Below are positions 1 through 16,547 of a stretch of DNA of 17,498 nt, piece by piece. The DNA is taken from contig DAOWJD010000014.1 of the NCBI GenBank assembly GCA_030640565.1, positions 1 through 17,498 of the forward strand, read 5' to 3'. The translations under genes and the position numbers were made by a program. How positions within the stretch are numbered: position 1 is the first letter of the stretch; every line of letters starts with the position of its first letter. Below the pieces are notes generated by a model. That model had not been told where the DNA came from. It saw only the letters and a list, made by a program, of their open reading frames with translations, and did not search any database. The DNA comes from Nanobdellota archaeon (lineage in GTDB: Archaea; Nanobdellota; Nanobdellia; Pacearchaeales; GW2011-AR1).

Positions 1-1
1 A

Positions 2-571
2 ATTGGGGATGGTCATCTTAAAAAAAGCAAGTATCAAATCAACTTAGAATTATCTAATAAAAATTTAATTAAAAGTATAAAAAAAATGTGCTTATATCTG
101 TTTAATAGATCATTTAATATTTGTAAAGTAAAAGAAAGGGTAAATAGAAAACAATCATATTCTATGTGTATTGATAGTAAAGCTATTCATCAATTACTAA
201 ACCAAGTACATGAAATTCCTATTGGTAAAAAAAGTCATATTGTAAAAGTTCCAAAATATATTTTTATTTCAAACAAATCAATTAAAGCTGCTTTTCTAAT
301 TGGAATAATGGTTACAGAAGGTGGAAAAAGAAGAAGGGGTTTTGGATTATCAACAGCCAGCGAACAATTATGGAAAGATTTAGTAATACTTTTTAATGAA
401 GTCGGAATTAAGGTAAAAACAGATAAGTGGACACACAAAAAGTATAAAAAGGATTATTATGGTTTATCTTTTAAGAAAGAATGTCTTTCTATTTTGACGC
501 GGGAGTGCCGGAGTGGTCAAACGGGCCAGATTCTTTTTAGGTGTAATAACCTAAGAGAAGGCTATGCTTAG
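2..571 (+). CDS. LAGLIDADG-family homing endonuclease, two-motif type, 5' end cut by window edge
   Basis: The frame of the tracked ORF 86..571 is open from base 2 and translates as IGDGHLKKSKYQINLELSNKNLIKSIKK..., the tail of a first LAGLIDADG motif. A second motif-like helix, KAAFLIGIMVTEGG, lies about 100 aa downstream, as expected for a monomeric double-domain enzyme. The first in-frame stop is TAG at 569-571, so the last ~24 codons are tRNA DNA. Confidence 0.7.
   Translation: MGDGHLKKSKYQINLELSNKNLIKSIKKMCLYLFNRSFNICKVKERVNRKQSYSMCIDSKAIHQLLNQVHEIPIGKKSHIVKVPKYIFISNKSIKAAFLIGIMVTEGGKRRRGFGLSTASEQLWKDLVILFNEVGIKVKTDKWTHKKYKKDYYGLSFKKECLSILTRECRSGQTGQILFRCNNLREGYA
469..478 (+). promoter_or_regulatory. 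TATA-like box for tRNA-Leu
   Basis: TTTTAAGAAA is centred about 26 nt upstream of the tRNA 5' end at 499. The L44e and tRNA-Thr boxes in this window have the same spacing. It lies inside the 3' end of the LAGLIDADG ORF. Confidence 0.4.
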
Positions 572-618
572 GACCTGGTAGCTTAGTGCTTGCAGGGGTT
601 CGAATCCTCTCTCCCGCA
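499..618 (+). tRNA. tRNA-Leu (anticodon UAG), class II with long variable arm, contains an intron of about 36 nt; no encoded CCA
   Basis: Hand fold: acceptor GCGGGAG (499-505) pairs with CTCCCGC (611-617), discriminator A618. D arm is CCG/CGG with an A14 and GG-containing loop. T arm is AGGGG-TTCGAAT-CCTCT. Variable arm is AGC-TTAGT-GCT. Anticodon loop is CTTAGGA (567-573) followed by CCTGG. The 120 nt length needs about 36 nt removed to give an 84-nt class II tRNA. A73 plus the long variable arm fits Leu rather than Ser. Confidence 0.8.
530..565 (+). other. putative tRNA-Leu intron, boundaries tentative (+/-1 nt), apparently at non-canonical position 30/31
   Basis: Removing 530-565 joins CCAG to G and gives a perfect 5-bp anticodon stem CCAGG/CCTGG around loop CTTAGGA. 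Removing 531-566 instead leaves an A31-C39 mismatch. The intron has an internal hairpin TTAGG-TGTAATAA-CCTAA (537-554) whose CCTAA could alternatively pair with the anticodon-loop TTAGG (568-572). I could not draw a clean bulge-helix-bulge by hand. Confidence 0.4.
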
Positions 619-635
619 TAATTATTTCTAAATCT

Positions 636-3600
636 TTATCCAAAACATCCAAGTAATTGACAATATGCCATATATCTTGCATAAGTCCCTCTAACATATC
701 CTTCAGAAGTAATTTCAGTGCCATACTTAGCAACATCTATAACATTTTCTGGAATAATTGCATATTCTGGAGAATTTCCTGTTCTTTTCTCATATTCGAT
801 TTTTATAGTGTGATAAATAATTGTATCTTCTAAATCATCTTCCTTCTCACTAGCTTGGAAAGTTTTTAGATTATCACGAGTCAATAAATCCTCTCTTCCT
901 ACTCTTATTAAAAATTCTTCAACAACTTCCATTGTTTTATCACCAATATCTCCATCAAGAGCAAGATTACTTCTTAGTAAGACGTTTAATTGATTCTGTA
1001 AGGCAGCGTTTCTAGAAGAATATAATCCTGACTGATAATCTGCAGCAATGAGTTTAATCCTATCTTCGTCTAAAGGTTTTGTATTATAATCAGTGTAAAC
1101 ATTTATTATTTCATTTAAATATAATACTCCATAATAAACTCCTCCTTTCTGTGTATACAATATAGATCTCATCTCTTTATCAGAGTAATCTTCGTGGCTA
1201 TATTTCTGAGCCAATACCCTCGCCTTTTCTACATTTAATTGCATTGAACCAACTGTCTCTGGTCTGAATCCTTTAACAAATAGTTTTTCCACGAATCCAA
1301 CAGAATCTAAGAATTGCTCTAACTGCTTTTCTGTTTTAATTTCTCTTATTTGATCTTTATATTTTTCATAAAAACGATTAGCTCCACGATATTTTAATCC
1401 AAGCCACTCTCCTCCTTCTTTAATCTCTTGTAATTTCCTTTGAATTATGTTTTCTATATTTGGTGTAAGAGGATCTGCTCTAAAATCAGATTCTCTCTCT
1501 ATCGTACTAACTATCAAAGATACATGTTCAAACTCTAAAGGAATATTCCAATCAATCATTACTCTTAAAATAGCATTTGCCCATTCTTCTCCTTGCTCTT
1601 GATTAATATGACCTCTTCTATAACTTATAGCCTGAGAAATAGGTCCTCTTAATAATTCAGCTTCAGGAGGGAAAAAAACTCTTTCTAATGGGGACTCTGT
1701 TTCTATAGCACATTCTGGAAACATCTCCATAACAGCGTTTCTGTTTGTCTCATCTAATACATCTTCTACATACCTAGGATTTCCTACAGATTTTTTATCT
1801 CCTTCTTCATCTACATCTGTACATCGGGTATTCCATCCATTATAACTTCTCAAAGCACGTTTCCATCCAGAATAAGCTTTATTAACAAAATCACTTTCTC
1901 TAACAACACCCCATTTTATCTGCCTATAACAACTATAAACTCTTTCTGAAGAATCATAATTATCTATTAATAAATTAATTCCATATTTCACATTTTCTTC
2001 AAAAAGTACTTTTTCTCCATGCACATCTTTATTAATTTGCATAATACCCAGACTCTTATCCTCATCTCCTGAAATAACTTCTTTAATATCTTCCTCACAA
2101 TATAATGGATCCTGTTCTAGATTATCAGAAGATCTTTTACAATGTCTAATATTGCTTTCAACTCTTGCAACCATTAAAGCTAAACATTCAAAAGATTCTG
2201 CTCTTGTGCCTTCTTTAACCTTATTAAAATCGATTTCCGGGTGCTCTAACTTTTTCTCTCTTGCCATCTCTATTATTTTTCCACCTAAAAGTTTTTGGCA
2301 TTCTTCTAATGTAAAGCAGGTTTCTGCTCCTGGCTTAATTTCTAATCCAATTCCTGGTTCAGTTCCTAATTGAGAACCCTCTTGAAAGGCTAAGGCATCA
2401 ATACTAAAAATAGTCTCTGCGCCATTATAATAATCCGGCTCTTCTTCGTCTAAGCTTTCTATTAAATCTTCATTTTGTAGCCATGTTTCTTCATCCCATA
2501 TCTTCATTTTTCCAATAAAAACTTTTGCGGGAACATGTGCCCAATTTTTCTTATCTGGAGACCATCTCCATTTTTTTTGAGAAGAGTCAAATTCAAAATA
2601 AACATCTGTTGCTTCCTGCTGTTTCACTGTAAATCTTTCTTTATGAGATAATTCAACACTTTTTGTAGATAATATTACATTAGACAAAAGGCCTTTACCT
2701 TTATTTTGTGTTGTTCTGTCAATTAATAATTTTAATCCCTCTGAATAAGATTCACCAACGAATTTACTTGTAAACTTTTGCATTTCTTCAGATAATCCAT
2801 CAAAGGGATGTCTTAATCTTCCATGTGGGTCAATAGCCCATATGTCAGAGACACCTTTATCTGTAGTGTGCCAAGCACTTTTAGTTAATTTTCTATCCAA
2901 AGCCCAATACCAATTATTCCCAGAATATGAATAATAAATGCTAGTTTTTTCTTTAAATAAAACAACTCCTCCATATTTAAATTCAAAAATAGGATATGCT
3001 CCTCTTCCTGTACCAATTCTTTTCGTTTCTTCATCAATCTCTGCTAATTTTCTCGCAGCCTCTTCAGTTGTAGGTGCACCCTTATCACTAGTTGGCGGAG
3101 GAGTAGGTTTTTTCTGTATGGATTTAATATATTTATCATATATATCTGAAACAATTAACCTATAGAGGTTTGCTCTTAAAAGAATTAAAGAAGCTTTTTT
3201 AGTTGGATGGTAAACCTTATCAATATCTGCATTAATTATGTTTATTTTTCTAAAATTGTTATCTTCTTCTTCTACATCCTTAAGAAGTTCCTTAAATTCA
3301 TTATCACTCAAAAAATTACTTCCTTCTAAAGTTTCTATGTAACCAGGTGTTACTTCTTCTAAAATTTTATCCTCAATATTTGTATTTTTTATAGTGGTTT
3401 TTACACTGTTTGTATCAAGCCAGCACTGCATCTTTGTATCTCCACAATATCCAACAGGTTGCCATCTTGATTTGTTTGTTCTAATAAAAGCATCTGTGGC
3501 TTTTCCAGGATTATCTGTTGCACATATTCTTGTAATTCCACGATTGTATAAGGCAGGGTTTGTTATTTCTGTTGCTCCTGCCTGGATATTAGGACTTAAT

Positions 3601-6600
3601 AAACTCAAAACATTTGGAGTCCCTGAACGACATGCTGCTTCTGTAGTAATATCTGTCTGGCTTGCCTGAGATTCAACATATTTTTCTGCAACATAATTTA
3701 CCCCAAAAGAGGTTGTAACTTGTTTAAAACCGCACTCTTCCTGACCATTAACAATTATACACATCTGATGATAACCAGAAGGAGCTGTAAGATCTCTTGT
3801 TTCTGTGAAATAATCTCCTGCTTTAATAAATCCCTGAGCAACAATTCTTTTGAGAGATGCATCTTGATAGAAAGAACCTCCTGTTCCTCTAAGATAAACC
3901 TGGTAATATGCTGGGAAATCTTTTCCTGCATAAACATGATAAAATACTTTATATTGCGAGACAGGTGGATTTGTTGCTGTAGTGAAAGGAATTTCATCAA
4001 ATCTTCCATAAAACTGTACAGGAGAATCAGGAGTTATAAAGGTGTCAAATCCAGAAGGTCCTACAAAAGAAATGAAATTTTTACAGACAGATGTTCCTAC
4101 ATCTTCCACAGATCTTCCCTTAAAGGATTTGAAAGAGCTTGCAGCATATTGTTGTGTGAAAAAGTCGATAGAATCGGATGAACGTTGCCATGCATCCTTG
4201 ACTCCGAGATATTCTCCTCCTCCACGAGCCTTTTGCCCAAGCACTGTCCCAAGTCCCTCTGTAACAATTATTTTTGCCAATGGAATTCCTTGTCTCCAGA
4301 TAAGATCACACAGATACACACTATTGATTTCATCACAAACCCCAACTGTTTGTCCTGTATCCAAACTAGTTTGCAAACATTGTTGATAAGAATCAAAAAC
4401 AGTTAGCAAACTTTCAATTCCTGCATGGATTCCAGACAAACAAACAGGAACTTTTACTTCTGGGAAATTTGGCAAGCAAAGAAAAATACTTCCTGCTATC
4501 CCTGTCTGTACAACATCTTTAACAGGATATGCTCCCCCTAAATCACACCTTGAACTTGGGCATGCAACAGGATCACATACATTAAACATTAAATTACAAT
4601 CTGAAGGCGACATAAAATCCTGGCATTGTATATCTGGCCTTCCTGTTTCAGGATTTCCAACTTTAATTCTCTGTGAGGCCCCCCTTGGAGATATAATACT
4701 AACATGAGATACTCCTGAACGATGTTGTCTTTGCGCAGCTAAAATCGCTTTTTCAGCAGTATTTTTCAATGTTCTTAATTCTCCTTTGTCTAATCCTGAG
4801 AAATCAGGAGGTTGTCCTCCCCAAGTAAATCCTTCACAACTATCATCACCTATTCCTGAATTAAATTCTGCCTTATTATTTCCTCCAACATTGCAAATAT
4901 AAAAACTTCTTACAACTCCTGATGCATCATAAGCTCTTATTGCACCACCTATAGGCATAGTGGGTTTTATATAAGCATACCACCCATTTTGTAAATCAAA
5001 AGGAACAATTGCAGGAAACCCTGCATAAGCACCTGATTCATAATATCTTACTTCTGCATTTTCAAACGCATTTTCATAAGTTGTTCTATCAACTCTCTTG
5101 AAAAAAGCATTTTTTAAATCATCTGATGGACTTGAAACAAGACTACCATCTTTTTGATTATAAATTAATGGCTGGTCTTCTTGATCTCTTGCTACAGGAA
5201 ATTTATCTATTCCTCCTGTATCATCTAAAACAACTATATATGTCTTACCTGTATTAGATGGTAAAAGTACAATAGGTGTGTTTTCTTTAATAAGGGGTTT
5301 TCCATCATCATCTATTATGTTATTTATGCCTTCTAAAGATGTTTTACCTTGAATATTTTTATAGGTAAGTCCGCTATAATCCATTGCTTTTACTCTTTCA
5401 CCTTCTTGGAAAAATTCAATTTGAGAAGGAGCAACACCATACTTGTTTACCAAATTAATCCTTTCAGAAAAATATTCAGTGTTTGCTTTTATATCTGCTA
5501 GAATATCATATCTTTTCTTTTCTGAAAGCTCTTTAAGTTCTTCCCCAATATTTGGTGTTGATAAAACTTTTTGCAACCTGTCCAAATCTCTTGCTTGGCT
5601 TGGAGTTATTTTCCCTTCACTGAAACCCTCTTCAGAAAATGCACTTCCAACATTTGATGTTTTAGAAATCTCTATTTTTTCTCCAGCCTTATTTGGGTTA
5701 GTTATAGAACCATCTAAAGATTCTCTTATTCGAATTAATCTCTCAGCAGCATTTTCACTTGTAATTGCTTCTTGATTTTCTATTATTTCTGACACAATGT
5801 TAACATCTCTGTTAATTTTATCTGAATTGTTAAGAAGACAGGCATCAACATTTCTATAATCCCCTAATTTTTTCTTTTTTTCACAGAAATCAAACCAACC
5901 TCCATCACCCCTCATTACTTCCTGCCTTGCAAGTCCTCTCCCTCCGAGATTTGAAAAAAAGTTTTTAACAGTAAGACCAGTCCCAATACCAAGACATGCT
6001 GCTTTAAAACCACTGACAACAGTTCCAATCTTTTTGTTTATATTCTGCCATTTCTCTAAAGTTTTATTTAAAAATTCAATTCTTTCTCTTGTTTTTTCAG
6101 GGGATAATTGAAATAATCTTTTTTCAATCCCTATCTTAAATCCAAAAGTAGCATTTGTTCTTGCATAATTTATCTTAGGATTTATAGAAACTTTTGCTAC
6201 TTTTTTTAAATTAACTTCTTCAAGTGTAAACTGATACTTACTTCTAAAAGTCTCTGTAACCCCATGAGATAAAGTTTCAGTTGAAGGTTCTATAAAGAAA
6301 GCTATTACTTCTTCCACAGTCCTGCTCTTCTTAAGATTAACTCTTATCCTTGCTGTTGCACCTCTATCTAATTCACCTTTTTGCAAATCCAAGAGTTGAA
6401 TATATTCATCTGTATCACCTGTATCATCTGTAGTTTCACCCAAGTAAACAAGAGTATTTTGTCTTAACTTAACTGATTCTCTCTCTCCATTAGGATATCT
6501 GATATTTATAGTTGCGCTAAACTCATCAAGAGAAGGCTCTCTAACTGAACCAAAATTAATATTATAAATTCTTCCATTTATAACAACATTCTCAAAAGTT

Positions 6601-8378
6601 TTTTCAGAACTGGAAAATGCATAAATACTTTTACATACTTGTTCTTCTTCTAAATTAGGGTATGTTGCTTTAAATTCATTACAAAGTTCTAGGGCTGTTC
6701 TTTTCTGGTCAGCAGAAAATGCAAGATTTATTTTTCCAGATAAAGCTTCAGGACCTAAAGTTTTACCAGATTCCGAAGATTTTTCCTGAGAGAAATCTTC
6801 AAGTACATAATCATAATCTTCATTTCCACTAGAATAATAATTCTGGAAATTTGAGTCTTCTTTAGATGCAAGAGACAGTTCAGAATTAGTAGCATCTGCA
6901 AATCCTAAAATAGTTATACTTTTTCCAAAGGCATTTTCGGGTTTTCCAAAAGAAATAGTGTCAAATGATTGACCTGCAAGTCTTCTTATACCTTTTTCAA
7001 CAACGCCTACTCCAGCTTTTCCTGCTTTAATAGTGGCATCGACAAGATTTTTTGGGGTTTCAGAAGGTTGAAGATTTTTCATAAGTCTCCCAATAGACAT
7101 TATCCGATCTTCTTCAATACAATCTTCATCGCCAGGAGCAGACATAATAACAATAAATAAATCTCCTTCAGATACAATATTACTTTTTGTACCAGCATAT
7201 GCAAGATAAGCAGATTTATCGTTATTTATTTTATAAAGTTTTTGTCCAACCTTTACTGTTTTTTCTTCTCCTCCAACATCAATTTTTAATTTAGGCTTAT
7301 ACCCTATTTGGAAAGAGCTCCTCCTAGTATCTCCCTGACAACTAATAGTAACTTTCTCATTAATTCCGTGATTTTCTATATATTTTATTGTGCATTTATT
7401 ATCTATGAATTTTTCCCCTTCTTTTAATTCAAGAACATTACCATTTACTTTTAAATTAACCCTTGTACCAGGATTTTCTAGGTCTTTCAGTTGTACTTGC
7501 ATGGTTCCAAAACAATAATCAAAACCAGGTAGAGGGGTGTTTCTTGAAGATTCACCAACATTAAGATTAAGTGTAACAAGTTTTCTTTTTACATCTGACT
7601 TTCCAGAACCATAAGTTTCTCTATCAGAATAAACAGAGATAGTTGCTCCATTGTTATCAATCCCTTCTGCTCTCAGATAACCTCTTCCATCCCAAAAACC
7701 ATATCTTAAATAATTCTCTTCCCATTCATCTTCATTCATTTGAGGAAGATAAAAAACAGATCTTCCGACGCCAAAAGCATTTTTTATATCATATCTTATC
7801 TTAGCTGTTAAATTTCCTAAAATAAATTCAGGCATGATTGATTCATTTATTTGCTTTCTCAAAACTATGACAGCATATCCTATTTTATTTAAAACAGGCT
7901 GATTAAACTGGGTCCTGAATCTTCCCAAGGCAGCTCTTGCAGGCACATACGTCACTCCTACAACTTCTTTTGGTTTTGGTCCTGCAAAAGAGAAAGTAAT
8001 GGTACTGATTGTTTCAATTTCTATCATAGGATTAAGTTGTGTCGCAACTATAGGACAAAAAACAGGAACATTTTGATCCTCAAGGATGTCGCTTCTTACA
8101 ACAGACGGTTCACAACCTAAAGGATCAATTTGAAGAATAAAATCCTGTCCTGCTTCACACTTGTTTCTATCAAACAAAGGAAATCCAGGGTCTCCTGAAT
8201 AAGGAACATAAGTTGGAGAATAAGAAGTAAATGATCTTGAATAAGAATTAGAAGCACTGAAAATTTGCGCTGAAATAAATGAAATTAATAAAACTGTTAA
8301 AATCAAGGCACTAAAAACTAAGATAAATCTTTTCATATTCATACGCGTCATTATTTTATTTTTTGCTTTCATCTTCAC
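636..8378 (-). CDS. giant (about 2580 aa) secreted multidomain protein with two C-terminal lytic-transglycosylase-like domains
   Basis: Uninterrupted 7.7-kb ORF. The N-terminus MKRFILVFSALILTVLLISFISAQIFSAS has a Sec-type n-h-c pattern. A Pro/Thr linker KKPTPPPTSDKGAPTT (about nt 3069-3113) separates the large unrecognisable body from a C-terminal module carrying SLT-like motifs. The start is uncertain: GTG 8378 overlaps the upstream TGA stop (GTGA), ATG 8372 follows AGGTGA, and further in-frame ATGs occur at codons 10, 13 and 15. Confidence 0.9.
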   Translation of the reverse strand: MKMKAKNKIMTRMNMKRFILVFSALILTVLLISFISAQIFSASNSYSRSFTSYSPTYVPYSGDPGFPLFDRNKCEAGQDFILQIDPLGCEPSVVRSDILEDQNVPVFCPIVATQLNPMIEIETISTITFSFAGPKPKEVVGVTYVPARAALGRFRTQFNQPVLNKIGYAVIVLRKQINESIMPEFILGNLTAKIRYDIKNAFGVGRSVFYLPQMNEDEWEENYLRYGFWDGRGYLRAEGIDNNGATISVYSDRETYGSGKSDVKRKLVTLNLNVGESSRNTPLPGFDYCFGTMQVQLKDLENPGTRVNLKVNGNVLELKEGEKFIDNKCTIKYIENHGINEKVTISCQGDTRRSSFQIGYKPKLKIDVGGEEKTVKVGQKLYKINNDKSAYLAYAGTKSNIVSEGDLFIVIMSAPGDEDCIEEDRIMSIGRLMKNLQPSETPKNLVDATIKAGKAGVGVVEKGIRRLAGQSFDTISFGKPENAFGKSITILGFADATNSELSLASKEDSNFQNYYSSGNEDYDYVLEDFSQEKSSESGKTLGPEALSGKINLAFSADQKRTALELCNEFKATYPNLEEEQVCKSIYAFSSSEKTFENVVINGRIYNINFGSVREPSLDEFSATINIRYPNGERESVKLRQNTLVYLGETTDDTGDTDEYIQLLDLQKGELDRGATARIRVNLKKSRTVEEVIAFFIEPSTETLSHGVTETFRSKYQFTLEEVNLKKVAKVSINPKINYARTNATFGFKIGIEKRLFQLSPEKTRERIEFLNKTLEKWQNINKKIGTVVSGFKAACLGIGTGLTVKNFFSNLGGRGLARQEVMRGDGGWFDFCEKKKKLGDYRNVDACLLNNSDKINRDVNIVSEIIENQEAITSENAAERLIRIRESLDGSITNPNKAGEKIEISKTSNVGSAFSEEGFSEGKITPSQARDLDRLQKVLSTPNIGEELKELSEKKRYDILADIKANTEYFSERINLVNKYGVAPSQIEFFQEGERVKAMDYSGLTYKNIQGKTSLEGINNIIDDDGKPLIKENTPIVLLPSNTGKTYIVVLDDTGGIDKFPVARDQEDQPLIYNQKDGSLVSSPSDDLKNAFFKRVDRTTYENAFENAEVRYYESGAYAGFPAIVPFDLQNGWYAYIKPTMPIGGAIRAYDASGVVRSFYICNVGGNNKAEFNSGIGDDSCEGFTWGGQPPDFSGLDKGELRTLKNTAEKAILAAQRQHRSGVSHVSIISPRGASQRIKVGNPETGRPDIQCQDFMSPSDCNLMFNVCDPVACPSSRCDLGGAYPVKDVVQTGIAGSIFLCLPNFPEVKVPVCLSGIHAGIESLLTVFDSYQQCLQTSLDTGQTVGVCDEINSVYLCDLIWRQGIPLAKIIVTEGLGTVLGQKARGGGEYLGVKDAWQRSSDSIDFFTQQYAASSFKSFKGRSVEDVGTSVCKNFISFVGPSGFDTFITPDSPVQFYGRFDEIPFTTATNPPVSQYKVFYHVYAGKDFPAYYQVYLRGTGGSFYQDASLKRIVAQGFIKAGDYFTETRDLTAPSGYHQMCIIVNGQEECGFKQVTTSFGVNYVAEKYVESQASQTDITTEAACRSGTPNVLSLLSPNIQAGATEITNPALYNRGITRICATDNPGKATDAFIRTNKSRWQPVGYCGDTKMQCWLDTNSVKTTIKNTNIEDKILEEVTPGYIETLEGSNFLSDNEFKELLKDVEEEDNNFRKINIINADIDKVYHPTKKASLILLRANLYRLIVSDIYDKYIKSIQKKPTPPPTSDKGAPTTEEAARKLAEIDEETKRIGTGRGAYPIFEFKYGGVVLFKEKTSIYYSYSGNNWYWALDRKLTKSAWHTTDKGVSDIWAIDPHGRLRHPFDGLSEEMQKFTSKFVGESYSEGLKLLIDRTTQNKGKGLLSNVILSTKSVELSHKERFTVKQQEATDVYFEFDSSQKKWRWSPDKKNWAHVPAKVFIGKMKIWDEETWLQNEDLIESLDEEEPDYYNGAETIFSIDALAFQEGSQLGTEPGIGLEIKPGAETCFTLEECQKLLGGKIIEMAREKKLEHPEIDFNKVKEGTRAESFECLALMVARVESNIRHCKRSSDNLEQDPLYCEEDIKEVISGDEDKSLGIMQINKDVHGEKVLFEENVKYGINLLIDNYDSSERVYSCYRQIKWGVVRESDFVNKAYSGWKRALRSYNGWNTRCTDVDEEGDKKSVGNPRYVEDVLDETNRNAVMEMFPECAIETESPLERVFFPPEAELLRGPISQAISYRRGHINQEQGEEWANAILRVMIDWNIPLEFEHVSLIVSTIERESDFRADPLTPNIENIIQRKLQEIKEGGEWLGLKYRGANRFYEKYKDQIREIKTEKQLEQFLDSVGFVEKLFVKGFRPETVGSMQLNVEKARVLAQKYSHEDYSDKEMRSILYTQKGGVYYGVLYLNEIINVYTDYNTKPLDEDRIKLIAADYQSGLYSSRNAALQNQLNVLLRSNLALDGDIGDKTMEVVEEFLIRVGREDLLTRDNLKTFQASEKEDDLEDTIIYHTIKIEYEKRTGNSPEYAIIPENVIDVAKYGTEITSEGYVRGTYARYMAYCQLLGCFG
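1000..1595 (-). other. second, more divergent lytic-transglycosylase-like domain (domain of the giant protein)
   Basis: VSLIVSTIERESDFRADP (Glu-Ser at 1488-1493), then about 80 aa later ETVGSMQLNVEKA (G codon at 1248-1250), then GGVYYGVLYLNEII. The order of signature elements matches the first domain but the E-to-GxMQ spacer is longer. The call rests on motifs only. Confidence 0.4.
1824..2216 (-). other. SLT / GH23-like lytic transglycosylase domain (domain of the giant protein)
   Basis: ECLALMVARVESNIRHC (candidate catalytic Glu codon at 2157-2159, followed by Ser), then SLGIMQINKDVHG (GIMQ at 2037-2048), then YGINLL and AYSGWKRALRSYNGW. This is the E-S ... G-[LI]-M-Q-[IV] ... Y pattern of family 1 soluble lytic transglycosylases and goose-type lysozyme-fold proteins. 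Confidence 0.65.
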
Positions 8379-10204
8379 CTAAATCCTATTTCAAGCCCCT
8401 TTGTTTCAAATAATAAATGATTGATTTGTAATTGCTCAATTGTTTCAGGCACTGAAAAGCTTTTTGTATCTATCTCAATAGTACTAAAACCGATTAATTC
8501 AGATTCTAAAATATAATATTTTTGTTTTCCTCCTCCTACAAGAGCTTGAGATATTATCTGTTCAGGAACCTCAATTTCAAAACATTTTTCTTCCTTTAAT
8601 CCAAAAGCTCCAAGAACTCCTGATTTTGGAATTTCCATACACTGCTCTGTTGTTGTTTCTCCAATACTAATAGAAGAATCCCTATAAATATAAACATGTA
8701 CTTCATATTGTCCTTCTGCTAACTCTACAATTCTCTGCTCAGGATAAAGAACAGTTTTAGTAAAATCATCTGAAACAAAATAAATTATTGCATTTTCATT
8801 ATAGTTTACTCCGTCGATTTTTAGCTGAATATTTTTATTGTAAAGTTGGTCCATAATAACTGTCAGACTTCCTGGAGAAACTGTTGAAAGTAAATATTTA
8901 GAATCCTTGAAACCTTCTGCTTTAGCTATAACATATCCATTAACACACTGTGGGAAGTTCTCTGAGAGTCTTCCTGCTTCAGTTTCTCCTATATTACATT
9001 TATTTCCAAAACATTCATAAGAAATCTGTGCTTCTCTTACAGGATTTCCTTGCTTGCTCACCACATTAATTTCAATTTCAGAATTTTTATACTGGCAAAG
9101 CTCTGGAACAACACTTTCAATTGCAGTTACATTCAAGGATTGTCTTGGATTATTATTTTGAATAACAACTGCCATAGGAAACTGAAAAATTTCATCTCCA
9201 GAATAAACCTGTACAAGAACAGGATATTTCATACTATAAACAAAATGATAAGGAACATAACAAAATCCCATAATTCCTAAACCAGGTTGGTTTCCTACAG
9301 GATTTGCTATTAAAAGATTTTCTTCAGAAGGCATAACTTCAAAACTATGTGGCCAGTTTCTTGAATTCAAAAATCTAACCTCTTCTTTTACAGAAACATC
9401 AAGAATAAAATAACCATCAGCATCTACTTTTGTATTAAGTGCTAAAGTATTTACTTCAATAGCCTCCTGCAATTCATCAAAAATCTCGTCTGCATTCTTG
9501 ATGAAAGGGGAACACGTAATCTCAACTCCATCAACAGGAGCATAAAGTCTTAATATATCAATTGCATATTCTTCTAAAAATAAATTCTCTTGCTCTTCTT
9601 CATATATCTTTTTCGCAGAATCATAAAGATCTCCTAGTTCTGATTTTACAGTAATCTTATGGTCTTTTATTAAAATACCTTCATTTCCTATAGATATATT
9701 TAGGTTTGCATTGAGTTTAACTCTGACTTCATTATCTTTAATTGTTGCTTTTGCTTCTGATTCTAACAGTGAAATTTCAAACCCTTGGTCATAATAAGAA
9801 TTAAAATTACAGTTATTTATTCTGCCTTCAATAAAGGATTCAAGCTGTTGCTCCATTTCTGTTTCTGTCGGAATCTGTTCTTTTTGAATATTATTTCCAG
9901 AAACATAATACCAATAAGGGATAGGGTTTCCAAGAAAATTCAATTGGGAAGAGAAAGGCATGTATTCAGAACCTGGCTCAAATTCTGGTAAAGAAATATA
10001 TCCTCCTTGACTTTGTAAAACATTTATACCTGTTAAAGTATCTTCCTCTAAACAAGTTAAGAAAGTTGTGTAAATTGGTTCAATATTCTCAGGAATATCT
10101 GTCTTAGTCAAAGTAGTTCTCAGAATAAAATAAGCACCAATTCCTGCAATAATAAGTATTGCAATTATAATGAAAATTGTTACCTGTCCACTCTTATTTT
10201 TCAT
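8375..10204 (-). CDS. 609-aa secreted or membrane-anchored protein with pilin-like (class III-like) N-terminus and a beta-sandwich-like domain; function unknown
   Basis: N-terminus MKNKSG-QVTIFIIIAILIIAGIGAYFIL is a short basic segment, then Gly, then Gln+1 and a hydrophobic helix. This is a near match to the archaeal prepilin-peptidase pattern, except that position -2 is Ser. The segment IEINVVSKQGNPVREAQISYE...GYVIAKAEGFKDSKYLL resembles CarboxypepD_reg/PEGA-like beta-sandwiches. Its stop overlaps the giant gene start and its start overlaps the 45-aa ORF. Confidence 0.85.
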   Translation of the reverse strand: MKNKSGQVTIFIIIAILIIAGIGAYFILRTTLTKTDIPENIEPIYTTFLTCLEEDTLTGINVLQSQGGYISLPEFEPGSEYMPFSSQLNFLGNPIPYWYYVSGNNIQKEQIPTETEMEQQLESFIEGRINNCNFNSYYDQGFEISLLESEAKATIKDNEVRVKLNANLNISIGNEGILIKDHKITVKSELGDLYDSAKKIYEEEQENLFLEEYAIDILRLYAPVDGVEITCSPFIKNADEIFDELQEAIEVNTLALNTKVDADGYFILDVSVKEEVRFLNSRNWPHSFEVMPSEENLLIANPVGNQPGLGIMGFCYVPYHFVYSMKYPVLVQVYSGDEIFQFPMAVVIQNNNPRQSLNVTAIESVVPELCQYKNSEIEINVVSKQGNPVREAQISYECFGNKCNIGETEAGRLSENFPQCVNGYVIAKAEGFKDSKYLLSTVSPGSLTVIMDQLYNKNIQLKIDGVNYNENAIIYFVSDDFTKTVLYPEQRIVELAEGQYEVHVYIYRDSSISIGETTTEQCMEIPKSGVLGAFGLKEEKCFEIEVPEQIISQALVGGGKQKYYILESELIGFSTIEIDTKSFSVPETIEQLQINHLLFETKGLEIGFR

Positions 10205-10331
10205 GTTTCTTCGCCTCTGCTATTTTTTTTCTTATAAGTTCTAGTATTTCAGTATTAATATCTTTTGTTATACTCTCTTTAAATTTCTCCCAAAGCTTTT
10301 CATCCTCTACAAGAAGCAAATATTTTTTCAT
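10194..10331 (-). CDS. small 45-aa ORF, ribbon-helix-helix (CopG/Arc-like) pattern; not in the supplied ORF track
   Basis: Hand translation of the minus strand gives MKKYLLLVEDEKLWEKFKESITKDINTEILELIRKKIAEAKKHEK, stop TAA at 10194-10196. It reads as a short beta strand (YLLLVE) plus two helices, as in RHH DNA-binding proteins. It is preceded by GAGGGGTG (10335-10342 on plus as CACCCCTC), complementary to an archaeal 16S 3' end. It overlaps the ATG (10202-10204) of the 609-aa gene by 11 nt. Confidence 0.45.
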   Translation of the reverse strand: MKKYLLLVEDEKLWEKFKESITKDINTEILELIRKKIAEAKKHEK

Positions 10332-10366
10332 AAACACCCCTCAACTCTAATCTAAAAAAATTCTAA

Positions 10367-10374
10367 TATATAAA
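10367..10374 (-). promoter_or_regulatory. TATA box candidate for the 45-aa / 609-aa / giant gene operon
   Basis: The minus strand reads AGAAACA-TTTATATA, a purine-rich BRE-like stretch followed by a TATA box. It lies about 39 nt upstream of the ATG at 10331, which leaves a short leader containing the SD-like GAGGGGTG. Confidence 0.45.
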
Positions 10375-10392
10375 TGTTTCTTAATAACTTAT

Positions 10393-10411
10393 TTACTAAG
10401 TTACTTAGTAA
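10393..10411. promoter_or_regulatory. perfect 9-1-9 palindrome TTACTAAGT-T-ACTTAGTAA, candidate operator
   Basis: Read directly: 10393-10401 is the exact reverse complement of 10403-10411. It sits about 20 nt upstream of the TATA candidate and about 50 nt downstream of the 65-aa gene stop. Confidence 0.4.
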
Positions 10412-10462
10412 GTAAAACAAGGCACGTGTGGATTATGTGAATTTATTGACATTAAACTAATA

Positions 10463-10660
10463 TTAAGAATACATTCTTCCTTTTTTGAAATAACTAAACC
10501 CTCCAATTATAAGAAGAACTCCTCCAATAAAAATTATCCATGATTCAATTAAAGTAAATGATTCAGGGATTTTTACAAATCCAAGAGGATAATTTAGAAA
10601 ATATAAGGCAAAGATAATATACAAAAACATAAACAAAACCCTGAATCTCTTTCTTCTCAT
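10463..10660 (-). CDS. 65-aa small membrane protein, two predicted TM helices
   Basis: MRRKRFRVLFMFLYIIFALYFLNYPLGF...WIIFIGGVLLIIGGFSYFKKGR has a basic N-terminus, two hydrophobic helices and a basic C-terminus. It has its own TATA-like box upstream. Confidence 0.55.
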   Translation of the reverse strand: MRRKRFRVLFMFLYIIFALYFLNYPLGFVKIPESFTLIESWIIFIGGVLLIIGGFSYFKKGRMYS

Positions 10661-10677
10661 AAAAAGATAATAGGGGC

Positions 10678-10690
10678 TATATATATAAAC
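10678..10690 (-). promoter_or_regulatory. TATA box candidate for the 65-aa gene
   Basis: The minus strand reads GTTTATATATATA, centred about 24 nt upstream of the ATG at 10660. This is compatible with a leaderless or very short-leader transcript. Confidence 0.35.
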
Positions 10691-10712
10691 TTTATTGGAA
10701 AATGCTTAGTTT

Positions 10713-11285
10713 TTATTTTTTACTTCCAATTGGAAAACGATAACCACATGTTAAAGCAATCATACCTTTTACATTTTCACTTCCTGGCCACACTATATAA
10801 CTGATTCCTCCATGAAGTTTATTAATTTTTACACCAGCACCAAACTTTAATCCAAGTGTTGTATTTGATACCTTCTCACGAATGCCAAATTGGGGAAGAT
10901 TTATTTCTGAATTTTCGATTAATACATTTGCACCAGCCATCAAATAAGGTTTTACTTTTGCTGTTTGTTTTGATAAATCAAACCTTACCTTAGCACTTAA
11001 CAAAGTACTCCTTGTTTTTATGCCTTTTTCTTTTGCTGATGACTTAAAAAAATCTAAACCAACTCCACCCCCAATTACTTTTCCACTAAGACTATAATCT
11101 ACACCAACCATGGTAGAAGGTTTATAAGCTTGTTTTTTTGCAGATATAGGGACTATTGTTCCGACCCTTAGTCCAATATAGTGCTCTAAAGATTGGGCAT
11201 TAAGTTCCAAAGGTATAAACAACATTAGACTCATTAAAGCTGTCCTCTTCGCTTTCCTTACTATTAATTCTAATCTTTGTTTCAT
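10713..11285 (-). CDS. 190-aa secreted protein with the pattern of an 8-stranded outer-membrane beta-barrel (OmpX/OmpW/OMP_b-brl-like)
   Basis: Signal-peptide-like N-terminus RKAKRTALMSLMLFIPLELNA-QS (AxA-type site). It is followed by eight amphipathic alternating segments: YIGLRVGTIV, TMVGVDYSLS, VIGGGVGLDFF, LLSAKVRFDL, KPYLMAGANVLI, TLGLKFGAGVKI, HGGISYIVW, MIALTCGYRF. Polar loops separate them. The last strand ends in an aromatic Phe near the C-terminus, followed by PIGSKK. Confidence 0.6.
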   Translation of the reverse strand: MKQRLELIVRKAKRTALMSLMLFIPLELNAQSLEHYIGLRVGTIVPISAKKQAYKPSTMVGVDYSLSGKVIGGGVGLDFFKSSAKEKGIKTRSTLLSAKVRFDLSKQTAKVKPYLMAGANVLIENSEINLPQFGIREKVSNTTLGLKFGAGVKINKLHGGISYIVWPGSENVKGMIALTCGYRFPIGSKK

Positions 11286-11324
11286 TTTATTTGAATTTTA
11301 TTTATTGCCATGCATAATTCATAA

Positions 11325-13796
11325 CTAAACATAATAACATGCTCCATAATTACATATTTCTATCTTACATCTTCCTGAGATGCATCCATGTTCACAATCT
11401 TCTATTTTCTTTTTTGAAGTAGATGATATACAATCTGAATCAGAACAATCTCTTGTTATATAGTCTCTATAAACATTATCATTATGACAGTAATTATCTC
11501 CAGTATATCCACTTACTCCACATTCTTGAACTTTTTCCTCTTCTATATATTCATTATCAAAACAAACCCCTATAGAACACCCTTTATTATGACAGATTTT
11601 ATCATGATAAACATCTCCATCTTCACAATAATCATCTTGCCAATCCTCACAATAATCAGAACCACAATCTTCTTTTAATTCAAGAGCAGTTGAATTTGAG
11701 CAATATGAATCACCTGTTCCAGCATTATTGCATGTATAAGTTATATAATTTTGCCAGACATTATCTTCCTGACATGATGAATCTCCCACATAATCATTAA
11801 CACCACATTCAGAATCATTATAACATTCTACATATACACACTCCCCGTCTAAACAGCCTTCAGCTCCGCATTCTTGAACTTTTTGCGTTGTTGTATTTTC
11901 AAAACAAGCTCCATCTGAACAACCCCTATCTGTAAAATTCTGATAAACATCATTATCATAACAATAATTATCACTATGGGAATCTTCTCTGCAATCCTCT
12001 TTCATAATTATATTGCTTTCATCGCTACAAAAAGATTGTTCTGTTCCAGGATTATTACAAGTATATTCTCTATACCACTGGTAAACATCATTATTAGAAC
12101 ACCAAGGACTCCCACTGAGATCATTTACTCCACAATCTATATTAGAAGAACAAATTATATTTGGATTTGATTTACAATTCCCATTTATGCATCCATACTG
12201 GCATGTTTCAACAAATCTTTCATTTTCATATGAATTTGAATAACAATGAACACCAAATGACGTTGTGGTTGTGCATCCTTTGTTATAACAAAGTTGGGTT
12301 TCATATGCGTCGTCCCCGTGGCAAGTATCTCTATACCAATCAGAACAACCATCATTTCCACACTCCTGTTTTTTTTCTTCTCTATTATCACATGCATCAT
12401 ACCAATAAATATCATTATAAGCACACTTTGTATATGAATGACTTGTACAAGTTATACAGGTTCCAGAACCATCACATTCATTATTTGTTCCGCAAGAAGT
12501 GTGTTTAGGTTTATTTGTATAATCAATACAAGCCATAGCAAAACTACAACTACCTGCTCCATTACAATATTTACCTACATCATGATAATTCCTACAAGTT
12601 GTATCTAAATAATCACAGTCTTTAGTTCCACAAACTGTTGAAGTTCCATAATAATTACAAGTGGAATCTCCTGCAGTACAATATTCACAAATTCCACAAG
12701 TATCATAATTAAAAGTACCCCAAGTATAACTAGCACTTAAACCAGTGCAATAATAATCTCTCTTAATAACAGAACTTGTTCCTGTTGGAGAATTTATTCC
12801 AGAGCAATAATAAGAATCAATATAACCTGTTGGTTGACTTAGATAAGGTTTAAATTCATATGGCCTGCTCGACAAATCACAACAAACTCCTGAAAGACAA
12901 TCGCACTCTCCATTTACATAACCATAAACACTATAACTAGAAGTAGACATCTCCCCAACTTTATTGCCAAAATCATAAATTTTAACATAAAATTCTCCAC
13001 TTGCTCCAGGGTCAGGAATAATCGCATCACTTAAATCAACACTCAAGAAATCTCCTTCAAAATAAAAAGATTCGCAATCATAGCTTTTACTTGAACCACA
13101 ATCCCAATCCACAAGATCATCAGGAAAAATCCCGTCATATTCCATCAAATCTATACACCAGGTAACATAAGCATAGCCATTCCTTGCACAATCATATAAA
13201 TCTCCATAATCTGGATAAAATCTTGCTCTTCCTTTAACAATAATATCTATTTCCTCATTCTCACAAACATTTGAAGGCAAAGAAGGGTCAAATTTAATAT
13301 AGTACGTAGATGAACTTGTAGATAAAACATATTCTTTTCCATCCCTCATAATATAACTTGTACCATTTCTATTAAGAATTTCACTAGATAAATTCATAAA
13401 ATCATCTATTTCAGTCTCATTAACCCCTTCTGTATAATTAGTTTCATTTTGATTGTCCACAATTTCATTTAAGACAGGAACATCAACAACATTTCCAGTT
13501 ATTACAGGAGCAGAAGAAGCACTGCCTCCACTTCCTCCTCCAGAAGATTTCTTAGAAGAGGATTTTTTATCAATCTCATCAAAAGTAAACTTAATTTCAT
13601 TACCTAAAGAATTTACATCTTGAGAAGTATCTTGTTCAGTATCAAGTAAAATAAGTTCTGTCCCTATATTGTTTTCATTATCTGATTTCCTAATTTCATT
13701 TGTAATTATAACTCCTGAAGAAACCACTAAGACCGAGATTACTAAAAAGATTAATGTAACACTTGCTTTTTTAGAAGTTAAAAAAAAACTTCCCAT
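11325..13796 (-). CDS. 823-aa secreted or anchored, extremely cysteine-rich repeat protein (adhesin-like); function unknown
   Basis: N-terminal anchor or signal SKKASVTLIFLVISVLVVSSGVII, then a Ser/Gly linker KKSSSKKSSGGGSGGSASSAP, a Cys-poor domain of about 200 aa, then aa 298-823 with 63 Cys by my hand count (about 12 percent). Confidence 0.85.
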   Translation of the reverse strand: MGSFFLTSKKASVTLIFLVISVLVVSSGVIITNEIRKSDNENNIGTELILLDTEQDTSQDVNSLGNEIKFTFDEIDKKSSSKKSSGGGSGGSASSAPVITGNVVDVPVLNEIVDNQNETNYTEGVNETEIDDFMNLSSEILNRNGTSYIMRDGKEYVLSTSSSTYYIKFDPSLPSNVCENEEIDIIVKGRARFYPDYGDLYDCARNGYAYVTWCIDLMEYDGIFPDDLVDWDCGSSKSYDCESFYFEGDFLSVDLSDAIIPDPGASGEFYVKIYDFGNKVGEMSTSSYSVYGYVNGECDCLSGVCCDLSSRPYEFKPYLSQPTGYIDSYYCSGINSPTGTSSVIKRDYYCTGLSASYTWGTFNYDTCGICEYCTAGDSTCNYYGTSTVCGTKDCDYLDTTCRNYHDVGKYCNGAGSCSFAMACIDYTNKPKHTSCGTNNECDGSGTCITCTSHSYTKCAYNDIYWYDACDNREEKKQECGNDGCSDWYRDTCHGDDAYETQLCYNKGCTTTTSFGVHCYSNSYENERFVETCQYGCINGNCKSNPNIICSSNIDCGVNDLSGSPWCSNNDVYQWYREYTCNNPGTEQSFCSDESNIIMKEDCREDSHSDNYCYDNDVYQNFTDRGCSDGACFENTTTQKVQECGAEGCLDGECVYVECYNDSECGVNDYVGDSSCQEDNVWQNYITYTCNNAGTGDSYCSNSTALELKEDCGSDYCEDWQDDYCEDGDVYHDKICHNKGCSIGVCFDNEYIEEEKVQECGVSGYTGDNYCHNDNVYRDYITRDCSDSDCISSTSKKKIEDCEHGCISGRCKIEICNYGACYYV
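11367..12425 (-). repeat. divergent tandem Cys-rich modules within the 823-aa protein (protein-level repeats)
   Basis: Recurrent unit C-x2-[ND]-[DN]-[VI]-[YW] ... C ... [KQ]-[EV]-[EQ]-[ED]-C-G ... G-C-x-[DNS]-G-x-C. Examples are CGVNDLSGSPWCSNNDVYQWYREYTCNNPGTEQSFCSDESNIIMKEDC and CGVNDYVGDSSCQEDNVWQNYITYTCNNAGTGDSYCSNSTALELKEDC, plus repeated KVQECG..GC..G.C closures. DNA identity between units is low, for example atcattaacaccacattc versus atcatttactccacaatc. Confidence 0.7.
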
Positions 13797-13820
13797 AAAA
13801 TAAGGACTTCTTTATACCTT

Positions 13821-13836
13821 AAATATATTTATATAC
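13821..13836 (-). promoter_or_regulatory. TATA-rich promoter candidate for the 823-aa gene
   Basis: The minus strand reads GGTATATAAATATATTT about 25-40 nt upstream of the ATG at 13796. It is divergent from the tRNA-Val promoter. Confidence 0.35.
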
Positions 13837-13852
13837 CAGATCATCAAAAAGA

Positions 13853-13860
13853 TTTATATA
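13853..13860 (+). promoter_or_regulatory. TATA box candidate for tRNA-Val
   Basis: TTTATATA lies about 31-38 nt upstream of the tRNA 5' end at 13891. Confidence 0.35.
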
Positions 13861-13890
13861 AAAATCTAACCTTATCTCCTAAAGCAATAA

Positions 13891-13962
13891 GGCCTCGTAG
13901 TCCAGTGGTTAAGACGCATCGCTGACTTCGATGTAACCCCAGTTCGATTCTGGGCGGGGCCA
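13891..13962 (+). tRNA. tRNA-Val (anticodon GAC), no intron, no encoded CCA
   Basis: Hand fold: acceptor GGCCTCG pairs with CGGGGCC (one G-U pair), discriminator A. D arm is GTC/GAC with an AGTGGTTA loop. Anticodon arm is CATCG-CTGACTT-CGATG. Variable region is TAAC. T arm is CCCAG-TTCGATT-CTGGG. Confidence 0.85.
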
Positions 13963-13994
13963 TTTGTTATTTGAAGGTGAATCTTATTAACAAG

Positions 13995-14003
13995 TTTTAA
14001 AAA
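13995..14003 (+). promoter_or_regulatory. TATA-like box TTTTAAAAA for the rpl44e operon
   Basis: Centred 26 nt upstream of the ATG at 14025, implying a leaderless or near-leaderless mRNA. The same 9-mer at the same spacing precedes tRNA-Thr (16444-16452). Confidence 0.45.
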
Positions 14004-14024
14004 CCTGGTTTTTCTTTTTTCAAC

Positions 14025-14336
14025 ATGAAAATTCCGAAGACAACAAACAGATTTTGTCCTTATTGCAACAAAAAAACAAAGCAAAAAATAAAGATAGTAG
14101 GAACAGGATTCCAAAGAGGGACTTTAACAAGAGGTTCTAAATCAAGAGCTAAATTAAGGGGATTGGGGAGGGGAATTGGAAATAAAGGTATTTGGGGTTC
14201 AAAACCAGCCCAATCAAAACACAAAAGAAAATCTAAAACAACTAAAAAAACAAATTTCCTTTATGTCTGTGATGTTTGTGGGAAAGCAAAATACCAGAAA
14301 AAAGGAAAAAGAGCAGGGAAAGTAATCCAAGAATAA
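14025..14336 (+). CDS. rpl44e: 50S ribosomal protein L44e (eL42)
   Basis: MKIPKTTNRFCPYCNKKTKQK...FLYVCDVCGKAKYQKKGKRAGK is a very basic protein with a CxxC...CxxC zinc ribbon and the characteristic KxPK..R.YCp.C..H start of archaeal L44e. Confidence 0.9.
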   Translation: MKIPKTTNRFCPYCNKKTKQKIKIVGTGFQRGTLTRGSKSRAKLRGLGRGIGNKGIWGSKPAQSKHKRKSKTTKKTNFLYVCDVCGKAKYQKKGKRAGKVIQE

Positions 14337-14337
14337 A

Positions 14338-15301: not shown

Positions 15302-15302
15302 A

Positions 15303-15854: not shown

Positions 15855-15855
15855 C

Positions 15856-16475: not shown

Positions 16476-16547
16476 GCCTGTGTAGCTCAGTGGTAGAGCG
16501 ACTGCCTTGTAAGCAGTAGGTCGGGGGTTCAACTCCCTCCGCAGGCT
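16476..16547 (+). tRNA. tRNA-Thr (anticodon UGU), no intron, no encoded CCA
   Basis: Hand fold: acceptor GCCTGTG pairs with CGCAGGC (one G-U pair), discriminator T. D arm is GCTC-AGTGGTA-GAGC. Anticodon arm is ACTGC-CTTGTAA-GCAGT. Variable region is AGGTC. T arm is GGGGG-TTCAACT-CCCTC. Confidence 0.9.

Follow-up and report, generated by a model that had tools for sequence, protein, structure and literature searches.

Why should an archaeon carry a gene for a single protein of 2,580 amino acids (aa), which appears to be exported, resembles nothing known over most of its length and ends in domains related to bacterial wall hydrolases? The gene lies in a Nanobdellota archaeon of the order Pacearchaeales, on a stretch of 17,498 nucleotides (assembly GCA_030640565.1, contig DAOWJD010000014.1, positions 1 to 17,498), referred to here as the window. 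It occupies positions 636..8378 of the minus strand. An earlier note, made from the sequence letters alone, had described a giant secreted protein of modular architecture and had considered an origin in a mobile element. The analysis reported here places the protein in a large archaeal family with a fixed gene partner, a strongly conserved body and a changing C-terminal tail.

Is the open reading frame (ORF) real? From a GTG it stays open through 2,580 codons, as the earlier note had seen in describing a 7.7-kb frame without naming its strand. With the base composition of the window (32% G+C, a stop probability of 0.07 per codon), the probability of 2,580 codons without a stop is about 1e-81. 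A second, independent assembly in the European Nucleotide Archive (ENA) encodes, on a 9.8-kb contig, a protein of the identical length of 2,580 aa with 2 substitutions, and protein searches returned hundreds of collinear homologues of 1,900-3,800 aa. A frameshift or assembly artefact is excluded because of this independent contig and these homologues. The stop codon of the gene upstream shares nucleotides with the GTG start (GTGA). The true start may instead be an ATG at 8372, two codons past the GTG and preceded by AGGTGA. Long plus-strand ORFs within the gene, such as 3720..4181, are antisense artefacts.

The N-terminus carries the Sec-type signal that had been proposed by eye. Residues 1-37 (8268..8378, minus strand) comprise a basic n-region, the h-region FILVFSALILTVLLISFIS and the sequence ISA/Q, the slash marking the predicted cleavage site. 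Residues 18-36, with K/R ahead of them and ISA/Q behind, form the sole 19-residue window of the protein above the usual Kyte-Doolittle threshold for transmembrane segments (2.76 against 1.6), and the S..SA of the signal region is kept in the family consensus. We infer that the signal peptide would be cleaved and the protein exported via Sec.

How widespread is this protein? A search of 5.8 billion proteins found 395 relatives. The 119 homologues listed are 1,834-3,108 aa long and all span query residues ~50-1750, at 37-72% identity. When residues 1100-1760 were compared by HMMER with 1.84 billion representatives of 50% identity clusters, 1,067 clusters were matched, 919 of them below 1e-30. 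In these matches, proteins of up to 3,779 aa, the core is invariably placed near residues 1,060-1,750, and its identity is at least 47% among the best 150. A search of one genome per GTDB species found the body family encoded in 453 stretches. Among the 80 GTDB loci listed, the titles name Pacearchaeota, Woesearchaeota, Nanoarchaeota, Nanoarchaeia or an unspecified archaeon, with the exception of one contig labelled 'Bacillota' that is presumably mis-binned; the few homologue records with bacterial labels are probably mis-binned as well. As judged from these records, the family is very large and is confined to Pacearchaeota, Woesearchaeota and Nanoarchaeota. The archaeal setting assumed in the earlier note is supported by these homologue titles (Pacearchaeota, Woesearchaeota and Nanoarchaeota) as well as by the neighbours of the gene in the window, which encode L44e, S3Ae and NDK, and by a G+C content of ~32%. 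Its description of the ORF as exceptional did not hold: within its lineage the ORF is not exceptional, and the family is counted as already known because it was pointed out before (PMC8204110).

For several homologues from Nanoarchaeota or Pacearchaeota the NCBI annotation reads 'transglycosylase SLT domain-containing protein'. Castelle et al. described a family, "fam00969", of large extracellular proteins with a murein-transglycosylase domain and proposed that they bind and degrade bacterial walls (Castelle et al., 2021; PMC8204110), and the same point was made again the following year (Vigneron et al., 2022; PMC9723730). We infer that the family of the window protein is fam00969, equating the two via the published description rather than the member list. 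The window protein shows full-length collinear homology to giant (~2,000-3,000 aa) lineage-restricted proteins that have a transglycosylase-type domain and are predicted to be extracellular, and relatives of it exceed the Pfam SLT cutoff. It shares with fam00969 the lineages, the size class (up to ~3,000 aa), the predicted extracellular location and a C-terminal SLT-type domain. It differs from the published descriptions in its rare double tail, an SLT-like domain followed by DUF1615, which occurs in only a handful of 226 tails. The fam00969 papers cover the SLT domain only; the conserved 1,700-aa body, the partner, the position beside L44e and S3Ae and the exchangeable tails are absent there. 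No experimental work on the family was found in the literature. What appears to be new is an ultra-conserved and unmatched body, an obligatory pilin-like partner, a fixed chromosomal position and a tail that behaves like a cassette.

The body (aa ~50-1750) accounts for the ~1700 aa that had been called unrecognisable, and it has remained so after Pfam, PDB, and AlphaFold2 with Foldseek. Scans of the whole protein against Pfam, NCBIfam, PHROGs and PADLOC gave no match in the body, returning only DUF1615 and one PHROG match at E 0.02. Against PDB sequences nothing was found by phmmer with the single sequence and nothing meaningful by a profile of the whole family. Two segments, aa 38-1100 (model mfca993819d21) and aa 1100-1760 (model m33fc60645e66), were modelled with AlphaFold2, each on an alignment of 41 sequences (the window fragment and 40 full-length homologues); the mean predicted local distance difference test (pLDDT) scores were 75 and 63. 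The modelling had been suggested in the earlier note, and it brought no fold match beyond generic ones. With Foldseek against the PDB, the best E for the two models was 3.7e-3, to generic Fn3/ApaG sandwiches or strings of cadherin or alpha-2-macroglobulin domains, and the aa 38-1100 model had no PDB match with E<0.01. Against BFVD the same model returned nothing significant (best E 9e-3, probability 0.18).

Along the body, the models and the alignments delimit six regions, all encoded on the minus strand. The N-terminal region (aa 38-759; 6102..8267) is modelled as several beta-rich domains, mostly strands, and includes a strongly conserved, Cys-containing head at aa 74-240. It is followed by a region modelled as helices (aa 760-980; 5439..6101), in which a hydrophobic loop rich in Gly, Ala and Thr, IGTVVSGFKAACLGIGTGLTV (aa 784-804), is conserved in the family, with pLDDT<50 and a Kyte-Doolittle value of 1.36. 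The least conserved stretch of the body, aa 981-1099 (5082..5438), is rich in insertions and deletions (conservation 0.2-0.3, gaps 0.2-0.43). An alpha/beta domain at aa 1100-1249 (4632..5081), predicted with pLDDT ~85-93, opens the most conserved block; Foldseek found no PDB fold match for it. The last region, aa 1452-1755 (3114..4025), is modelled as a beta-sandwich (1454-1555), a small Cys-containing domain and a helical hairpin that closes the body, and gave weak Fn3-like and ApaG-like Foldseek matches (E>=3.7e-3).

Between these last two regions lies the most conserved part of the protein, a moderately hydrophobic, Cys-rich block with a GGGEYL motif (aa 1250-1451; 4026..4631). The Cys-dense stretch that had been picked out by eye corresponds to 10 Cys between residues 1252 and 1357, all of which are invariant in the 41 homologues, and column identity in the block is 0.7-0.8. 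The pLDDT falls below 50 at aa 1250-1324 and 1342-1451, probably because the alignment is too uniform there. In the body as a whole, 22 of 31 Cys are invariant in the 41-sequence alignments, and the body is probably stabilised by disulfides. The moderately hydrophobic internal segments named in the earlier note are both present. As classic transmembrane helices they are unlikely, because their Kyte-Doolittle values (1.36 and 1.06-1.51) stay under 1.6 and one of them has a conserved Lys in its middle. A rise of G+C to 0.38 at window positions ~3500-5000, against ~0.32 in the rest of the gene, coincides exactly with the stretch of highest conservation (aa ~1130-1620) and probably reflects amino-acid constraint (Gly, Cys, Pro, Ala) and not foreign DNA.

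What follows the body? Homologue coverage collapses past residue ~1750, and the border between conserved body and variable tail is marked by the Pro/Thr linker KKPTPPPTSDKGAPT (aa 1756-1770, minus strand), found at exactly the nucleotides given for it earlier, 3069..3113. Beyond the linker, a tandem duplication termed the FEFW module (aa 1785-2000; 2379..3026, minus strand) repeats a unit of ~95 aa with the pattern strand-strand-WxWS...W..V ... LI..L.GK.Y.EG. The two-copy motif seen by eye reflects this real duplication, whose copies align to each other at E 0.002 and are supported by the family alignment; its register had been off by one strand element, and the first copy aligns at IYYSYSGNNWYWALD, not PIFEFKYGG. 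The module has no PDB or Pfam match.

The tail ends in two domains that had been taken for lysozyme-like folds, a view that is solid for the second as a DUF1615 match and weaker for the first. The first, aa 2015-2230 (1689..2336, minus strand), appears to be a divergent domain of the GH23 type (SLT/goose-lysozyme-like), on the basis of invariant motifs and sub-threshold profile scores. In family-1 lytic transglycosylases, the catalytic Glu belongs to an E-S motif, and G-L/I-M-Q and (A)Y-N-x-G motifs come after it. Their counterparts in the window protein are E2074-S2075, G2111-I-M-Q and Y2179-N-G (YNGW), which show little or no variation among 22 homologues (columns E60, G97, M99 and Y165-N166-G167 of the domain alignment are invariant), and E2074 is the predicted catalytic residue. 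The profile of this domain family matched only goose-type (g-type) lysozymes in the PDB, weakly (E 0.05-0.45). Pfam SLT (PF01464) scored 13.9 bits on aa 2015-2230 against a cutoff of 21.3 (E 0.041) and gave nothing at E<=0.1 in the scan of the whole protein; it matched 6 of the 22 GH23-like members at E<=1, with a best value of 7.6e-4. The domain also aligns to the C-terminal regions of the SLT-bearing homologues P0054, P0025 and P0101, and in P0054 the alignment overlaps the SLT match itself. Relative to known GH23 enzymes (family-1 lytic transglycosylases and goose-type lysozymes), it has extra conserved Cys and lies under the Pfam threshold. The evidence thus points to a divergent GH23-like domain and not to a demonstrated GH23.

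The second domain, aa 2262-2570 (669..1595, minus strand), matches DUF1615 (PF07759) with 135.6 bits against a cutoff of 25 (E 2.9e-39), over profile positions 4-314 of 319. It contains the motifs ERES (E2296), GSMQ and ADYQSG and a PG_binding-like stretch, LALDGDIGDKT; among DUF1615 relatives the E-S, GSMQ and DYNAG motifs are invariant. Outside the giant family, it is most closely related to stand-alone proteins of ~380 aa, at 25-30% identity. They are lipoprotein-like, and the sole one with an organism label comes from a metagenome-assembled genome of Proteobacteria. These relationships are compatible with an uptake of DUF1615 from bacteria, which is not established. When DUF1615 was aligned to the GH23-like domain by hhalign, a narrow alignment of 6 sequences gave a probability of 74% (E 3e-5) and a broader one of 19 sequences gave 1.8% (E 0.028). 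The best PDB match of DUF1615 is an endolysin, weakly, at E 0.023 over the E-S region. Both C-terminal domains share the triad of E-S, G-x-M-Q and Y-N-x-G with known GH23 and DUF1615 enzymes. Those enzymes are stand-alone bacterial periplasmic proteins, whereas here the domains are fused behind an archaeal protein of 2,000 aa.

The tail varies widely across the family. Tail lengths range from 85 to 1,363 aa. In a survey of 226 tails, an SLT-like domain was found in 106, the FEFW module in 118 and DUF1615 in 9. A further domain, 'c1', occurs in 85 tails; it and the SLT-like domain are mostly mutually exclusive, with both combined in 12 tails. None of SLT-like, c1 and DUF1615 is present in 43 of the 226. 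Other tails carry a VanY D-Ala-D-Ala carboxypeptidase or a pretoxin-HINT region followed by more domains, the latter in few relatives only (P0051, P0061). Since even the closest homologue, P0002, is 80% identical in the core and has no DUF1615, the tail appears to act as an exchangeable cassette on a fixed body. The c1 domain (for example residues 383-675 of the P0056 tail), which the window protein lacks, is marked by a GD...H..IF motif and by two Cys, one His and one Trp that are invariant. Its likeness to papain or NlpC/P60-type hydrolases is by eye, with no Pfam or PDB support, and such an identity is not claimed. In the locus of P0051, the pretoxin-HINT homologue is followed by a Fic-domain gene, a PIN gene and a small ORF (L002, 18451..19446, plus strand).

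The gene is not alone. Directly upstream on the same strand lies a gene for a 609-aa protein (8375..10204, minus strand), here termed the partner, whose stop overlaps the start of the giant gene, and the giant gene is translationally coupled to it. In each of the 56 loci that extend at least 6 kb upstream, a homologue of the partner directly precedes the giant gene and shares its strand. The partner family comprises more than 2,170 proteins; among the 120 listed, identity is 58-92% and most lengths are 606-640 aa. No Pfam match was found for the partner, and no PDB match with its profile. Its N-terminus, MKNKSG/QVTIFIIIAILIIAGIG, resembles that of prepilins. The class III signal pattern known from the FlaFind work consists of a short basic N-terminus, a [KR][GA] cleavage motif and ~20 hydrophobic residues. 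In nearly all members of the partner family, the N-terminus reads [KR][GA]/Q[VIL]T[IV]FIIIA followed by ~20 hydrophobic residues; 101 of the 120 homologues fit [KR]x0-1-G-Q-[VILM]-[TS]-[ILVM]-F, and A replaces G in most of the exceptions shown. The 22 residues past the motif have a mean Kyte-Doolittle value of ~2.6. The partner is therefore predicted to carry an archaeal class III (prepilin-like) signal peptide, a pattern to which it conforms.

Two small ORFs complete the cluster. One of 47 aa (MKKYLLLVEDEKLWEKFK...; 10194..10337, minus strand) overlaps the start of the partner gene by 11 nucleotides, and homologues occupy the equivalent place in 20 of 47 loci. The other, of 65 aa (10463..10660, minus strand), encodes a small membrane protein with two hydrophobic segments, is the first gene of the conserved cluster and has homologues at the equivalent place in 34 of 47 loci. 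The cluster adjoins divergently transcribed genes for L44e and S3Ae in 42 of the 47 loci with enough flanking sequence. On its other side, TFIIB, S8e and an LSM gene flank it in the loci inspected, with TFIIB directly after the giant gene in some. With this gene order, and with no relative of the core in the viral, phage and plasmid collections searched, the pair of partner and giant gene is a vertically inherited chromosomal module and not a mobile element.

Other genes of the window have been inserted into this arrangement or lie at its margins. Between tRNA-Val/L44e and the cluster of small ORFs, partner and giant gene, two genes are inserted. One encodes a 190-aa protein (10713..11285, minus strand) with a signal peptide and a match to Pfam OMP_b-brl (31.4 bits against 28.7, E 2.6e-7), a bacterial outer-membrane beta-barrel family that is odd for a single-membrane archaeon. 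The other encodes a secreted protein of 823 aa (11325..13796, minus strand) that is extremely Cys-rich, with repetitive C-x-x-C and D-C-G-x-x modules, and that has no Pfam, NCBIfam, PHROG or PADLOC match. A chimeric assembly at these genes is dismissed because the closest related contig, L006, has both at the equivalent site (52% and 59% identity). L006 and L057 have weaker relatives of the 823-aa protein upstream of their clusters. The 190-aa gene might be a further host-interaction gene taken from bacteria. Downstream, a free-standing ORF resembling LAGLIDADG homing endonucleases (161 aa; 86..571, plus strand) is convergent with the end of the giant gene. In 7 other loci (L006, L015, L024, L027, L039, L067, L082) a homologue of this ORF likewise follows closely behind the giant gene, which suggests a recurrent insertion site. 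Genes for tRNA-Val(GAC) and tRNA-Thr(TGT) lie at 13891..13962 and 16476..16547, both on the plus strand. The 80-aa 'ORF' at 13872..14114 (minus strand) is merely the antisense of the tRNA-Val region.

Does this arrangement resemble a known system? In bacterial polymorphic toxin systems, reportedly described by Zhang, Aravind et al. in 2012 and said to have been followed by an archaeal survey by Makarova et al. in 2019, a conserved N-terminal presentation region is combined with C-terminal domains that vary among close relatives, as in the giant family. In those systems a pretoxin precedes the toxin; in the giant family pretoxin-HINT regions occur in few relatives, and there is none in the window protein. 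Peptidoglycan hydrolases are common among the effectors of polymorphic toxins. The body matches no known toxin delivery module (RHS, filamentous haemagglutinin, LXG, MAFB and others), and the locus is housekeeping-like rather than an island as in polymorphic toxins. No immunity gene or spare toxin cassettes were seen downstream of the window gene, where only the convergent LAGLIDADG ORF was found; in a producer without murein, immunity would be unnecessary. The giant protein has not been filed under polymorphic toxin systems. The SPEARE proteins of Nanohaloarchaeota offer another comparison, being giant proteins with adhesion-type and degradative domains for which a role in host interaction has been proposed (Hamm et al., 2019; PMC6642349). 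SPEARE proteins and the giant family are alike in being giant, mostly extracytoplasmic proteins of DPANN archaea with degradative enzyme domains. SPEARE proteins target archaeal hosts, are anchored by a C-terminal transmembrane segment and contain laminin-G, serine protease and restriction-endonuclease domains (PMC6642349), whereas the giant protein shows no sequence relationship to them and has an N-terminal signal only, an unmatched body and murein-directed domains.

What, then, might the protein do? The reading we favour, on which belief and doubt are evenly balanced, is that it is a lineage-specific cell-surface protein, a device for contact with host or prey that would present cell-wall hydrolases to bacteria. 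The giant protein would be co-expressed with its prepilin-like 609-aa partner, a step for which the tight coupling and conserved order of the two genes provide the basis, and would be exported via Sec by means of its signal peptide. Its ~1,700-aa body would make up an elongated scaffold that combines beta-rich domains with a helical bundle and a Cys-rich core, and the partner would keep this scaffold at the cell surface. The Pro/Thr linker, presumably flexible, and the duplicated adaptor module would bear an exchangeable enzymatic 'warhead', here two tandem domains of the lytic-transglycosylase type, the GH23-like domain and then DUF1615. As their motifs and family membership suggest, these tail domains would cleave the glycan strands in the peptidoglycan of bacteria. 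This could allow the archaeon to fasten itself to a bacterial wall and open a local breach, whether to get at the underlying cell or to gather fragments of the wall.

Several observations weigh against such a contact device. The GH23-like domain falls short of the Pfam SLT cutoff, the links of DUF1615 to lysozymes are weak (E 0.02-0.03, with the hhalign support confined to the narrow alignment), and the most conserved block of the body is the one without a model. Because 43 of 226 tails have none of the three common tail domains and the body is extremely conserved, the body must, it seems, have a function of its own, independent of wall hydrolysis. With 47-80% identity over 650 aa, the body is better conserved than is usual for a protein exposed to a host surface that varies, and the locus lies among housekeeping genes; given both facts, a structural or housekeeping role fits as well.

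That role has been considered as an explanation in its own right, in which giant and partner would be the main scaffold of the surface layer (S-layer) or envelope and the hydrolases accessories that remodel the cell's own wall polymer or clear debris. It is an unlikely explanation, but one to be taken seriously. The pair keeps one position beside L44e-S3Ae and TFIIB-S8e across the clade, body and partner are both strongly conserved, the body is beta-rich and multi-domain in the AlphaFold2 models, and the 43 tails have no common hydrolase-type domain. S-layer proteins, however, change rapidly in evolution, so that ~50% identity throughout an order is rare among them, and no S-layer family was matched in Pfam, NCBIfam or Foldseek searches. 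The cassette-like tail, which includes pretoxin-HINT and VanY modules typical of conflict systems, also speaks against an envelope scaffold, as does the fact that archaea normally lack murein (PMC8204110). The same conserved position also bears on the descent from a mobile element that the earlier note had considered, in which the protein would stem from, or still belong to, such an element, as a phage tape-measure or a conjugation- or secretion-associated protein with a C-terminal lysin. In favour of this origin there are only the LAGLIDADG ORF downstream and the parallel with mobile elements whose long proteins may likewise have lytic domains at the end. This origin is left without support by the synteny with ribosomal protein genes (L44e-S3Ae in 42 of 47 loci) and by searches of 2.9 million IMG/VR viral contigs, 50,697 INPHARED phage records and 72,556 PLSDB plasmids, in which the core had no relative. 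The best PHROG match reached only E 0.02, the aa 38-1100 model had no fold match in BFVD, and no phage or conjugation genes lie nearby in the window or the loci inspected. Tape-measure proteins of phages are almost entirely alpha-helical, cytoplasmic and without signal peptide, and are encoded in a tail-gene module; the window protein, with its Sec signal and beta-rich modelled body, fits none of this. A mobile-element origin was rejected on the strength of synteny and the empty viral-contig, phage and plasmid searches, and we consider it very improbable. The layout given in the earlier note was in essence correct, its suggested ancestry not.

The hydrolase domains could instead serve nutrition. 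In this scavenging role the protein would depolymerise peptidoglycan as an exoenzyme tethered to the surface and release amino sugars and peptides from dead bacterial walls, neither attaching to live hosts nor attacking them, a proposal we find no more probable than the envelope scaffold and no less. It shares with the contact device the evidence for hydrolase domains (the DUF1615 Pfam match and the GH23-like motifs), and it agrees with the minimal metabolism of Pacearchaeota and with their muramoyl-tetrapeptide carboxypeptidases, which have been read as a sign that bacterial wall peptides are used (PMC11537232). Yet an invariant scaffold of 1,700 aa and an obligatory pilin-like partner exceed what a secreted hydrolase needs, the pretoxin-HINT tails of relatives point to effector delivery, and many members have no recognisable hydrolase. 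Explanations other than these three and the contact device together have a slim probability. A bolder form of the contact device, in which the pair, possibly with the two small upstream ORFs, would be an undescribed archaeal surface machine directed at bacterial hosts, seems to us doubtful, somewhat more so than either the envelope scaffold or the scavenging enzyme. In such a machine, the partner would anchor or extend the scaffold, the tail would open the murein, and aa 1250-1451 together with the loop at aa 784-804 would form pores in the host membrane or bring about its fusion. If true, it would be a dedicated apparatus for inter-domain parasitism in Pacearchaeota and Woesearchaeota, with no homologue among known secretion, toxin-delivery and fusogen systems.

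What does the family mean for the biology of these archaea? Pacearchaeota and Woesearchaeota are abundant, uncultured and genome-reduced. A surface protein that may be directed at murein is a rare molecular hint that some of them live on bacteria and not on archaea. The earlier remark about large SLT-domain proteins has now become a defined unit, composed of a fixed two-gene module, an unmatched body and a switching tail; the body still has no match in sequence or fold despite more than 1,000 sequence clusters. From it, constructs can be derived for testing enzyme activity and antigens for locating the protein, and the gene pair could serve as a marker that links archaea to their hosts. The four features that appear to be new make the family a good experimental entry into the host biology of these archaea.

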